Assembly (NCBI GenBank): GCA_963719515.1 | Contig: CAVRCJ010000001.1 | Span: 256,001 to 320,000 of the forward strand | Direction of reading: 5' to 3' | From: an uncultured cyanobacterium | GTDB taxonomy: Bacteria; Cyanobacteriota; Cyanobacteriia; CAKZMO01 | Length of the DNA: 64,000 nucleotides | Part shown: positions 1-63,484 of the stretch, piece after piece | How positions within the stretch are numbered: position 1 is the stretch's first letter | Layout of the letters: each line of letters begins with the position of its first letter | Program-made: the position numbers and the translations under genes | The notes under the pieces: model-generated | Told to the model about the DNA's origin: nothing | Database searches by the model: none | What the model saw: only the letters and a program-made list of their open reading frames with translations

Positions 1-165
1 CATATCTGACGGATAACACCCTACTTTCCGTGATTATTCACCGCATCTGACGTCTAACTCCGGGAATCTAGGGTGTTATCCGTCGCTCTTGTCTGATAAC
101 CATGGGTTCTAGGGTATTATCCGTCACTTTTGTCAGATAACACCCCATTTAGCGGTGTTATCCCG
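1..165. promoter_or_regulatory. Array of alternating GGATAAC / GTTATCC motifs upstream of intI remnant (unit 1)
   Basis: About 7 motifs (e.g. 11-20, 71-81, 112-122, 136-145, 154-163). Aligns along its length with 21641-21805. Confidence 0.7.
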
Positions 166-174
166 TGATTAGCC

Positions 175-307
175 ATGTCGTCATCCCAGCCTCCTCGCCT
201 GCTCGACCAAGTAAAGCAGGTGCTTCGTACAAAGCAATTGCAGCCTCACAACTGAGGAGTCCTACATCCACTACATCCACGAATTCATCCTATTGCACGG
301 CGATCGC
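175..307 (+). pseudogene. intI: Integron integrase 5' remnant (N-terminal region only), frameshifted
   Basis: MSSSQPPRLLDQVKQVLRTK, then after removing one base HCSLTTEESYIHYIHEFILLH. This matches the IntI N-terminal pattern PRLLDQVR...HYS..TE..Y..WI..FILFH. It ends at a HIP1 site; no catalytic domain. Confidence 0.8.
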
Positions 308-315
308 CCCACAGC

Positions 316-574: not shown

Positions 575-604
575 TTGCCAAGCCGCGCACAAATGTCCTA
601 CCTT
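575..604 (+). promoter_or_regulatory. Sigma70-like promoter of module copy 1
   Basis: TTGCCA-N18-TACCTT; both hexamers and the spacing are identical in all three copies. Confidence 0.6.
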
Positions 605-605
605 A

Positions 606-826
606 TGGAGCTATGAGCCACAACCCATGGTTCTAGTCTCCCAAAGATTCGGTCTGGGCGGAGCCGCATGTTGTATGCGCAACATGCAGCCCCTAAGCCC
701 CCACGACAGACACTGGCTGTCGGGAACGGCCTGGAGTAATGATATTACCCGGCCATCCCAAAACCAAAAACGTCGCGGATGTCCGGTCGGCGGGGGGCTC
801 CAATTAACTCAAAAACGGAGTCCCTC
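606..826 (+). ncRNA. Putative structured leader RNA, copy 1
   Basis: Stems conserved and loops variable across three copies. Compensatory pairs present; a hairpin covers the SD. Confidence 0.7.
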
Positions 827-1174
827 ATGACAACTCAATATCATTCGCTGCCTCCCAAGGCGGCACAGTTCGCAGCGCCCCAAAACCCCGCTGCGGAACC
901 CGCAGCGCTGCGGTTAGACTCCCCCATGGAAGCCGAACCCGCTATCTCCACGCTGATTGAACCCTCCCCAGCGCCGGGCTGCGAGCATTTGCGCCACATC
1001 ATCATCGGCTCCCCCGAAGGCGTGCGCCAAGCCATCAACCGGCTGCACGTGCTGCAGTACGTCGAGTGGCGGCTGTGGACCCCGCTGATTGCCATCGGCG
1101 AAAAAGGCGTCCACATCACCCCCACCCAAGGCCAAGTGCTCAGCTACCTCATCCAGCAGCGGCCTATTCAATAG
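827..1174 (+). CDS. Hypothetical 115-aa protein, copy 1
   Basis: GGAG SD before ATG 827; core HLRHIIIGSPEGVRQAINRLHVLQYVEW is conserved in three copies. Confidence 0.8.
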   Translation: MTTQYHSLPPKAAQFAAPQNPAAEPAALRLDSPMEAEPAISTLIEPSPAPGCEHLRHIIIGSPEGVRQAINRLHVLQYVEWRLWTPLIAIGEKGVHITPTQGQVLSYLIQQRPIQ

Positions 1175-2749: not shown

Positions 2750-2779
2750 TTGCCAACCCGCGCACAAATGTCCTACCTT
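2750..2779 (+). promoter_or_regulatory. Promoter of module copy 2
   Basis: TTGCCA-N18-TACCTT. Confidence 0.6.
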
Positions 2780-2780
2780 A

Positions 2781-3002
2781 TGGAGCTATGAGCCACAACC
2801 CACGGTTCTAGTCTCCCAAAGATTCGGTCTGGGCGGAGCCGCATGTTGTTGATCCCAACATGCAGCCCCTAAGCCCCCACGATAGGAGTTGGCTATCGGG
2901 AACGGCCTGGAGTAATGATATTACCCGGCCATCCCAAAACCAAAAACGTCGCGGATGTCCGGTCGGCGGGGGACTCCAATTAACTCAAAAACGGAGTCCC
3001 TC
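2781..3002 (+). ncRNA. Putative structured leader RNA, copy 2
   Basis: Same stems as copy 1, with CGATAG/CTATCG replacing CGACAG/CTGTCG. Confidence 0.7.
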
Positions 3003-3350
3003 ATGACAACTCAATATCATTCGCTGCCCCCCGAGGCGGCACAGTTCGCAGCGCCCCAAAACCCCGCCGCGAACCCATCCACGCTGCGGCTAGACTCCCC
3101 CATGGAAGCCGAGCCCGCTATCCCCACCCTCATCGAGCCCTCCCCAGCGCCGGGGTGTGAGCACCTACGGCACATCATCATCGGCTCCCCCGAAGGCGTG
3201 CGCCAAGCCATCAACCGGCTGCACGTGCTGCAGTACGTCGAATGGCGGCTGTGGACCCCGCTAATTGCCATCGGCGAAAAAGGCGTCCACATCACCCCCA
3301 CCCACGGCCAAGTGCTCAGCTACCTCATCCAGCAGCGGCCCATCCGATAG
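3003..3350 (+). CDS. Hypothetical 115-aa protein, copy 2
   Basis: Near-identical to 827-1174. Confidence 0.8.
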   Translation: MTTQYHSLPPEAAQFAAPQNPAANPSTLRLDSPMEAEPAIPTLIEPSPAPGCEHLRHIIIGSPEGVRQAINRLHVLQYVEWRLWTPLIAIGEKGVHITPTHGQVLSYLIQQRPIR

Positions 3351-21898: not shown

Positions 21899-21980
21899 GT
21901 CTTCGTAATTGCTGGCCAAAGGCCAATTCCTATTCATCTGCACAAGTTTGCTTCATTACGTGCAGCGATCGCCCCACAGC

Positions 21981-22190
21981 AGAACTCTCAAGCAATTCAG
22001 CAGAACTGCCGAGTCGGTTTACAGAACTGCTGAGCAGCATTTTAGAACTGCCGAGCAAGATCCCAGAACTGCTGAGCAAATTAGCAGCACTAGCCAGCAG
22101 CCCTGTTCAACTCAGCAGCAGCTCAACAGAACTCCAAAGCAGCAATTTAGAACTGTTGAGCAAGTTAGCAGCACTCCCGAGCCGCGATCG
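21981..22190 (+). repeat. Degenerate 21-bp tandem array, 10 units, bounded by HIP1 sites
   Basis: Similar unit for unit to 316-525. Confidence 0.85.
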
Positions 22191-22220: not shown

Positions 22221-22250
22221 TTGCCAACCTGCGCACAAATGTCCTACCTT
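22221..22250 (+). promoter_or_regulatory. Promoter of module copy 3
   Basis: TTGCCA-N18-TACCTT. Confidence 0.6.
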
Positions 22251-22251
22251 A

Positions 22252-22468
22252 TGGAGCTAAGAGCCGTCCACGGTTCTAGTCTCCCAAAGATTCGGTCTGG
22301 GCGGAGCCGCATGTTGTGACACCAACATGCAGCCCCTAAGCCCCCACGACAGGCATGGGCTGTCGGGACGCCTGGAGTACATGTTACCCGGTCATCCCAC
22401 CTCCCAAAAACGTCGCGGATGTCCGGTCGGCGGGGGACTCCAACACAATTCACAAAATGGAGTCCCTC
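22252..22468 (+). ncRNA. Putative structured leader RNA, copy 3
   Basis: Most diverged copy; stems kept, loops changed. Confidence 0.7.
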
Positions 22469-22843
22469 ATGACAACTCAATATCTTTCGCTGCCCTGCGG
22501 GTCGGCACAGTTTGCAGCGGCCCAAAACCCCGCTGCGGACCAGTCAGCGCTGCGGCTAGACTCGCCCCTAGAAGCTGAACCTGCTATCCCCACGCTAGTC
22601 GAGCCTTCCCCAGCTCCGGGGTGCGTTGGCCCTTCAGGGCCAGTCGAAGACTCACACCTAAGGCACATCATCGTTGGCTCCCCCGAAGGCGTTCGCCACG
22701 CCATCAACCGGCTGCATGTGCTGCAGTACGTTGAGTGGCGTCTGTGGACACCCCTAATCGCCATCGGTGAGCAGGGCCTCCATATCACCCCCGCCCAAGG
22801 GCAAGTGCTCAGCTACCTCGTGCAGCAGCGCCCCATCCGATAG
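22469..22843 (+). CDS. Hypothetical 124-aa protein, copy 3
   Basis: Homologous to copies 1 and 2, with a 9-codon insertion. Confidence 0.8.
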   Translation: MTTQYLSLPCGSAQFAAAQNPAADQSALRLDSPLEAEPAIPTLVEPSPAPGCVGPSGPVEDSHLRHIIVGSPEGVRHAINRLHVLQYVEWRLWTPLIAIGEQGLHITPAQGQVLSYLVQQRPIR

Positions 22844-63410: not shown

Positions 63411-63484
63411 GGACGTATAGCTCAGTTGGTTAGAGCACCACGTTGACATCGTGGGGGTCACTGGTTCGAGTCCAGTTACGTCCA
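63411..63484 (+). tRNA. trnV: tRNA-Val(GAC)
   Basis: Cloverleaf GGACGTA...TACGTCCA; anticodon arm CCACG-TTGACAT-CGTGG; GGTTCGAGTCC T-arm. Confidence 0.97.

Follow-up and report, generated by a model that had tools for sequence, protein, structure and literature searches.

The DNA analysed here (the window) is a 64,000-nucleotide (nt) stretch of contig CAVRCJ010000001.1 from an uncultured cyanobacterium, and the element under study is a leader RNA encoded at positions 606-826, between a promoter-like block and a 115-codon open reading frame (ORF) at 827-1174. One promoter-like block, one leader of ~220 nt and one ORF of 91-131 codons make up a unit, and the window holds three such units. Exact and near-exact motif matches placed the copies at 607, 2782 and 22253, and a covariance model, R2, matched at 600-835, 2775-3011 and 22246-22477. 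The copies could be aligned from ~15 nt 5' of the TTGCCA box through the stop codon, with a mean column identity of 85%, and their differences fell mostly within hairpin loops. A preliminary description made from the sequence alone had proposed that a structured leader lay here in three copies, and this was borne out: the minimum free energy (MFE) of copy 1 was -93.8 kcal/mol versus -72.2 ± 4.8 for 200 dinucleotide shuffles (z = -4.5), and none of the 200 folded as well. The leader was considered non-coding because a 67-codon ORF inside it (627-830) is disrupted in copy 2 and because loop lengths vary by 1-5 nt among copies. The parts of copy 1, including the Shine-Dalgarno sequence (SD), and the extents of copies 2 and 3 are as follows.

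575-604 (+): promoter-like element of copy 1, with TTGCCA at 575-580, an 18-nt spacer containing a conserved CAAATG, and TACCTT at 599-604
610-637 (+): P1, the 5'-terminal hairpin, GCUA-U-GAGCCA / UGGUUC-UAGU
636-647 (+): S1, the near-invariant strand GUCUCCCAAAGA, which extends P0 by pairing with S2 (786-798)
648-654 (+): 5' strand of P0, UUCGGUC, whose long-range partner is 781-786
656-700 (+): P2, a long interrupted hairpin
692-703 (+): conserved C-rich joint CCUAAGCCCCCA, preceding P3
704-722 (+): P3, hairpin CGACAG/CUGUCG
728-754 (+): P4, hairpin GGCC-U-GG-A-GUAAU / AUUAC-CC-GGCC
754-781 (+): P5, hairpin CAUCC/GGAUG with a conserved loop ..ACGUC..
781-786 (+): 3' strand of P0, partner of 648-654
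786-798 (+): S2, which pairs with S1 and is made up of the linker and the initial bases of the P6 5' arm (GUCGGCGGGGGGC)
792-826 (+): P6, the SD-sequestering hairpin, with 5' arm 792-801, loop 802-816 and 3' arm 817-826
817-820 (+): SD GGAG, inside the P6 3' arm
827-1174 (+): ORF of copy 1, 115 residues, of an orphan cyanobacterial family (…LRHIIIGSPEGV…LH.L.YVE..LWTP…GQVLSYL.QQRP)
2775-3350 (+): copy 2, leader 2775-3011 and ORF 3003-3350 (115 residues)
22246-22843 (+): copy 3, leader 22246-22477 and ORF 22469-22843 (124 residues)

A covariance model from homologs, the check that the preliminary description had suggested, was built in two versions: R1 from 30 copies of the window's genus, and the broader R2. 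The main covariation alignment comprised 91 copies from 17 genomes aligned to R2, with 61 annotated pairs. Pairing was kept in 88.7% of cells, versus 33-44% in six slid controls in which the 3' partners were shifted by 1-3 columns; fitting to the model favours the structure, a bias that the slid controls carry only partly. Both sides had changed at 47 of the 61 pairs (753 cells), the covariation score was 0.394 versus 0.05-0.09 in the slid controls, and no measure was reached by any of 500 shuffles. An R1-based alignment gave a similar picture (87.4% paired, 49/61 pairs), as did a set fetched by a DNA pattern (see below). These data showed that the leader has a conserved fold: P1, then P0 enclosing P2 to P5 in a five-way junction, then P6.

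Taken helix by helix, most of the hairpins proposed at first were kept. The inner helix of P1 was paired in 92.6% of cells, with 5/7 pairs changed on both sides and variants such as GAGCC/GGUUC, UAGCUG/CAGCUU and UGACUG/CAGUCU; the outer GGAG/CUCC that had been drawn below it was complete in only 18/91 copies, its 5' side varying without compensation. P2 was paired in 88.2% of cells, with changes on both sides at 10/11 core pairs. P3 reached 89.7%, with GACUG/CAGUC variants in nine copies, and the change from C-G to U-A noticed in window copy 2 (CGAUAG/CUAUCG) was real. P4 stood as a hairpin, its outer three pairs being 91% paired (the outer pair 160:212 was GC in 46 copies, AU in 17 and GU in 13), while its inner part aligned less well, at 74%. 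The final SD hairpin, P6, was kept, with 97.1% pairing, 8/8 core pairs changed on both sides and variants GGGGGACUCC/GGAGUCCC, GGGAUUCCU/AGGAAUCCC, GGGUUUCU/AGGAACCC and GGUUUUUU/GGAAAACC; it pairs the SD 4-8 nt 5' of the start codon. Three elements had been absent from the preliminary description: the long-range stem P0, the hairpin P5 and a pairing, S1:S2, that competes with the SD hairpin. P0 was 86% paired, with 3/7 pairs changed on both sides (UUUGGUC/GGCCAAA, ACUUGGUC/GGCCAAGU, AUUUAGUC/GGCUAAAU, ACUUAGCC/GGCGAGGU), and P5 was 93.4% paired, with 5/5 pairs changed on both sides. The joints of the junction are invariant. Leader identity among 33 paralogs was 61%, versus 55% at third codon positions and 74% at positions 1 and 2 of the conserved protein domain; the fold, rather than the sequence, is conserved among paralog leaders.

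Two further points concern the fold. RNAalifold run on the three window copies only gave 74 pairs, none of them changed on both sides, because another pairing was chosen around P3. Outside the window's subfamily, the P6 loop mostly starts with a conserved (U/A)ACCC(A/U); a small alternative hairpin could arise if this third CCC paired with the GGG of the P6 5' arm.

S1 (CUCCCAArrA) is the most conserved unpaired stretch of the leader, near-invariant and immediately 5' of P0. Its complement S2 (yyyUUGGG(GGAC)) lies immediately 3' of P0 and consists of the linker followed by the opening 3-7 bases of the P6 5' arm. Since the two strands flank P0 on either side, S1:S2 extends P0 and excludes full P6: the resulting stem of 13-19 pairs would take the G-run that P6 requires. 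S1:S2 could form 6-12 contiguous pairs in 84/88 scorable copies. The preliminary description had assigned the role of opening the SD hairpin to two other strands, and neither is kept. Six or more contiguous pairs with the P6 5' arm were found in only 17/89 copies for the P4 5' strand and in 2/89 for the strand between P2 and P3, whereas S1:S2 has at least six in 88/89.

The linker part of S1:S2 covaries. Offset 3 is AU in 54 copies, GC in 16 and GU in 7; offset 4 is AU in 53 and GC in 20; and offset 1 is G-C in one copy. With their own partners, S1 strands had 4.36 of 5 positions paired, versus 3.93 ± 0.04 when partners were exchanged (0/2000 exchanges as good), and on the 24 distinct combinations the values were 3.71 versus 3.24 ± 0.12 (0/2000). 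When each helix was enforced in turn, the state with S1:S2 (ON) lay a median of 1.5 kcal/mol above the state with P6 (OFF), within totals of -66 to -105 kcal/mol (n = 88). Unconstrained, the MFE structure contained mainly P6 in 62 of these copies and mainly S1:S2 in 22. The window copies have just seven contiguous S1:S2 pairs (GUCUCCC/GGGGGGC), most other copies 8-12. Two properties of riboswitches are present: a conserved, covarying sensor domain within a 5' leader, and, as far as computation goes, an expression platform with mutually exclusive SD-controlling pairings.

We then counted the family. In the source genome (5.28 Mb), BLAST with the leader gave 21 matches, and R1 gave 37 full-size and two short ones; 11 further R1 matches were the minus strand of the palindromic P2. 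A six-frame profile search found 78 ORF pieces, corresponding to ~76 loci of the protein family. For the 38 family loci lacking an R1 match, R2 with filters off detected a leader of at least 200 nt at E ≤ 0.005 in 24 and none in the other 14. Adding these 24 to the 37 R1 units gives at least 61 leader-plus-ORF units in this genome.

Beyond this genome, BLAST of the leader saw the window's genus only (5/17 genomes of the order), and the wider family emerged with the covariance models. R1 matched in 12/151 genomes of the class sample, and R2 in 32/151 genomes and 24/80 genera of the cyanobacterial sample, mostly with several copies each, these copy counts being minimum values as the best 14 candidates per genome were scored and several genomes reached that number. 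Own genome excluded, R2 matches were distributed by family as f1 6/9, f9 6/9, f14 5/9, f16 8/8, f17 4/4, f27 1/1 and f28 1/1. A degenerate DNA pattern run over a genome collection returned 103 stretches, 80 of which were examined. R2 matched at 108-181 bits in 73 of the 80, all of them cyanobacterial; among these 73 are loci of Nodosilinea nodulosa PCC 7104, Phormidium tenue FACHB-1052, Leptolyngbya spp., Halomicronema, Sphaerothrix, Almyronema and metagenome-assembled genomes (MAGs) of Elainellaceae. The seven stretches without an R2 match came from six Desulfobacterales/Deltaproteobacteria MAGs and one Sericytochromatia MAG. The six former loci carry an identical 101-nt pattern span, are unmatched by the RNA model and may share other conserved sequence.

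The leader is linked to a single gene family. A family ORF follows 37/37 full-length leaders of the source genome (33 intact, 4 broken). In other genera, 19/21 diverged leaders precede a family ORF and the remaining two end at a contig edge. In the pattern set the figure is 66/73, with six ending at a contig edge and one having no ORF detected. R2 found no match near the gene in distant Nostocales plasmid homologs (Trichormus variabilis ATCC 29413 plasmid D and Nostoc sp. TCL26-01), nor close to the gene at a Kovacikia minuta protein-family locus, and tblastn of the window protein against plasmids gave nothing at E ≤ 1e-6. The Nostocales plasmid homologs adjoin partition, replication or integrase genes.

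The encoded protein looks soluble, and it is an orphan. Pfam assigned no family to two window ORFs or 22 diverse relatives, and NCBIfam none to the two window ORFs. A protein profile search retrieved 155 cluster representatives (50% identity) at E ≤ 0.001, 48 at 1e-10 and 4 at 1e-30. A word-indexed search retrieved 36 relatives, the few named ones being "hypothetical protein" of Elainellaceae MAGs, and ESM Atlas held "hypothetical protein" clusters only. The AlphaFold model (mean pLDDT 71.8) is disordered over its N-terminal half, and its strand-helix-strand (beta-alpha-beta) core at residues 52-113 is confident. Foldseek found nothing in the PDB at E ≤ 0.001 for this model; a wide VIA-align search had a best Z of 4.1, and the fold matches of the core were weak and non-specific. 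A nine-residue insertion (GC-VGPSGPVED-SHLRH vs GC-EHLRH) is present in some paralogs and absent from others across different subfamilies, a pattern that suggests exchange between copies.

No common gene emerged among the 56 ORFs that neighbour 28 units. Housekeeping neighbours included psbA-type genes (twice), ChlH, chorismate synthase, PriA and photolyase, and defence- or mobile-type ones included PIN, three DNA methylases, Mrr, HSDR_N, Uma2, HEPN, XisH, NYN, DUF559 and TIR-STAND. HIP1 sites flank many units. At the borders of the units we found no terminal inverted or direct repeats, target duplications or recombinase.

Upstream of the leader, a CTTGCC...AAATG..CTAnnnT block is conserved ahead of the genome's 37 full-length units, 27 of which have TAnnnT at the aligned position, with a TTGCC-N17/18-TAnnnT spacing. 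A strict sigma-70 scan found no site in copy 1. Judging from the promoter-like block, transcription would start at ~607-612. A search for RNA runs gave none from the organism itself. Metatranscriptome contigs from four runs of four studies covered leader and ORF of relatives in one piece; these contigs represent relatives at ≥80% likeness, are blind to strand, starts and level, and may come from libraries in which DNA was present.

The preliminary description had called the leader unrecognised, and this held. At gathering scores, Rfam 15 (4227 models) matched in the whole window only a tRNA at 63411-63484. Over 400-1300 at E ≤ 10 there were seven weak, unrelated matches (best E 0.16), and among eight diverged copies at E ≤ 0.1 there were two unrelated ones, both outside the element. 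Full-text literature searches found no description of the leader RNA or of the protein family. A survey of 202 cyanobacterial genomes (PMC12873609, Nucleic Acids Research 2026) describes a search anchored on 931 KEGG orthologous groups that yielded 409 novel structures; with such an anchor on annotated groups, an unannotated family was presumably not covered. A term search of the main text of PMC5737381 gave no mention of cyanobacteria. Collectively, our data establish that the leader is a real, widespread and uncatalogued structured RNA that has been duplicated together with an orphan gene.

What does it do? Most likely it acts as a translational switch. In the reading that we favour, and to which we give about an even chance in its full form, the leader is the 5' part of a monocistronic mRNA and works in cis on translation in response to an effector. 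By analogy, its layout is that of a translational ON switch, in which a closing stem is opposed to an SD sequestor. When P0 and its extension form, P6 would lose its G-C base, the ribosome-binding site would open and translation would be ON; in the closest subfamily, P6 would lose most of its 5' arm in this state. Otherwise P6 would form and translation would be OFF, a default state with a slight energetic advantage. The balance would be shifted by an effector able to stabilise the junction domain, which could be a small molecule, the small protein itself or some other factor common to the copies. As the junction and switch nucleotides are the same in every copy, the 60 or more paralogs of one genome would respond together. 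The riboswitch-like translational switch of the preliminary description is thus retained as far as its layout goes (a covarying SD hairpin against a P0 extension), and dropped as far as the strands that it named, which are not the conserved ones.

Several known systems resemble parts of this arrangement. In translational ON riboswitches such as the add adenine riboswitch of Vibrio vulnificus, the 3' strand of the aptamer P1 alternatively sequesters the SD. In the leader, likewise, the 3' strand of the closing stem (P0 plus S1:S2) is also used by the 5' arm of the SD hairpin, and the two states exclude each other and differ little in energy. In contrast to the add type, the leader has a far larger sensor domain (~140 nt, four hairpins), has no Rfam match and occurs in at least 61 copies per genome, always ahead of one orphan gene family. 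The lysine riboswitch (L-box) has a five-way junction over ~180 nt and, like it, the leader combines a closing stem and four helices at one junction, with a similar size and in cis. Rfam holds a lysine riboswitch family, as it holds one for the phage C4 antisense RNA, but Rfam 15 gives the leader no match and the linked genes are unrelated. The cyanobacterial glutamine riboswitches (glnA RNA and the Downstream-peptide motif) are ~60 nt long, multicopy and found before small ORFs of mostly unknown function. The leader is also cyanobacterial, multicopy and ahead of small ORFs, but it has six helices over ~220 nt, and the glnA and Downstream-peptide models of Rfam do not match it. Finally, c-di-GMP-I (GEMM-I) riboswitches occur in Geobacter in dozens of copies per genome, before many different gene families. 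Many copies of the leader would similarly give a co-regulated gene set, with the difference that they always stand before paralogs of one family, RNA and gene having been duplicated as one unit.

Several observations weigh against a switch. The first ones concern the competition itself. In the subfamily of the window copies (7/88) the linker is unpaired and the OFF state lies lower by 6-7.5 kcal/mol. No variation is seen in the CCC of S1, in the GGG of S2 or in the CCC of the P6 3' arm, so covariation leaves the core competition unproven, and the S1:S2 positions that do covary fall in the linker, outside P6. Moreover, the MFE structures of 13/88 copies join 7-11 S1:S2 pairs with a seven-pair P6 that still covers the SD, and it is possible that the two partly coexist. 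At the junction, P4-outer plus P0 could not be distinguished from an extended P5, the counts being similar (middle pair, paired/not, 78/4, 65/24 and 69/19): as P4-outer, the longer P5 and P0 draw on common G/C triplets, a further set of competing pairings may exist there. Other points concern the context. Riboswitches usually precede varied, ligand-linked gene families rather than dozens of paralogs of one orphan; here a single orphan family always lies downstream, ligand-related genes from several families were not found, and the effector cannot be inferred from gene function. For the window copy itself, transcription, its start site and any regulation are predicted. Relatives' RNA contigs end at, or within ~22 nt of, the position equivalent to window 607 and one continues 255 nt upstream, but such ends say nothing about the start, because the assembly of a multicopy family stops wherever its paralogs become different.

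These points lend themselves to a simpler view, in which the leader is static: P1 would be a stabilising hairpin, P0 would run on into its linker extension, a shortened P6 would stack on it, and the whole would set mRNA stability and a low, constant translation without switching. The 13 structures that join both pairings fit this view, the covarying linker positions are compatible with a shortened P6, and the flanking genes show no ligand-related link. Nevertheless, plain occlusion of the SD needs neither ~220 nt, nor five covarying helices, nor joints that are invariant across several families. Most copies, too, have S1 paired with the G-run needed by P6, and the two full states lie only ~1.5 kcal/mol apart. 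We consider a static leader doubtful. Going the other way, one may push the translational switch to a new riboswitch class, whose five-way-junction aptamer would bind a metabolite or signal and, through the opened ribosome-binding site, turn on simultaneously 60 or more paralogous orphan proteins per genome in several families of filamentous cyanobacteria, as a regulon built solely by duplication of sensor and gene together. We put this forward tentatively, as a proposal with a rather low chance of being right in all its parts.

The preliminary description had also raised control by antisense RNA or by processing, and a possibly toxic product, as in type I toxin mRNAs or the phage P1 C4 and P4 CI systems. 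Type I toxin mRNAs (hok/sok, tisB/istR, aapA1/isoA1) are multicopy and have long structured leaders, a hidden SD and alternative folds. In hok, tisB or aapA1, a translationally inert primary transcript needs cleavage to become active, or a small antisense RNA keeps it off. The leader resembles them in being multicopy and long, with a buried SD in a conserved hairpin, alternative folds and long-range 5'-3' pairing. In addition, several copies adjoin PIN, HEPN, restriction-modification or other defence-type genes, and 4/37 ORFs are broken. The product is of another kind, however: type I toxins are usually hydrophobic peptides of <60 residues, whereas the ORFs here encode 91-131 residues with a disordered N-terminus, a beta-alpha-beta core and, by sequence, no hydrophobic helix. 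The regulation does not fit either. Neither a conserved antisense promoter nor a second RNA came to light, nor did an antisense RNA or a processing site, for which no aimed test was made; the minus-strand model matches were confined to the palindromic P2, and no toxin-antitoxin RNA family of Rfam matched. Since S1, the strand that opens P6, is located at the 5' end, removal of that end would delete it, and 5' processing would leave the mRNA locked off instead of activating it. As to C4 and CI, Rfam gave no match and the neighbours are not phage immunity genes, which speaks against this likeness. Overall, nothing was found that supports antisense control, processing control or toxicity of the product, and we regard a toxin-like mRNA as improbable.

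It is slightly more improbable still that the leader belongs to a mobile or selfish element, or is a trans-acting RNA that merely lies upstream, for instance a scaffold or guide for the encoded protein. The scatter of at least 61 units over one genome, often in variable or defence-type surroundings, would suit such an element, as would the patchy distribution across cyanobacterial families and the constant co-occurrence of RNA and protein. Yet homology between copies runs only from ~15 nt 5' of the -35 box to the stop codon, and the units lack the terminal inverted repeats, target duplications and recombinase mentioned above. The SD hairpin abuts the start codon, there is no terminator between leader and ORF, and contigs from RNA libraries join the two. 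Least probable is an RNA thermometer or other physical sensor in which temperature shifts P6 against S1:S2 with no bound effector: the small energy gap between the states and the conserved SD hairpin would suit it, but known RNA thermometers are short SD hairpins, melting requires no five-way junction with invariant joints, and P6 has 8-10 mainly G-C pairs in many copies.

If the translational switch is the right reading, the leader would be among the most abundant uncatalogued structured RNAs of cyanobacteria, with 32/151 genomes and at least 61 copies in this one. It also gives a handle on a large orphan protein family (~76 loci here, 155 public cluster representatives): a common leader means a common signal, and the identity of the effector would tell when the genes are used and hence what they are for. 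Since culturable carriers such as Nodosilinea nodulosa PCC 7104 exist, the switch model can be tested directly by reporters and structure probing. More generally, screens anchored on annotated orthologous genes would overlook leaders of unannotated multicopy families.

Incidentally, we noticed several features around the window copies. Tandem 21-nt repeats (consensus CAGAACTCCCGAGCAGCTCAA) form arrays of 6-9 at 315-517 and 21980-22169. Such arrays occur at four sites of the genome only, each 77-107 nt 5' of a leader of the closest subfamily and on the same strand, and could be a binding array or simply have been duplicated along with the rest of the segment. Between copies 1 and 2, the minus strand (1272-2595) carries a PIN-domain gene (1272-1688), a putative antitoxin gene (1685-1942) and a fragment of 222 residues resembling an N6-methyltransferase (1927-2595). 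At the start of the window (1-310), 41-nt repeats with GGGTGTTATCCG-type motifs lie at 66-163, and after them a short frame-shifted stretch at ~190-310 may resemble the SAM-like N-terminal domain of a tyrosine recombinase of the integron type.

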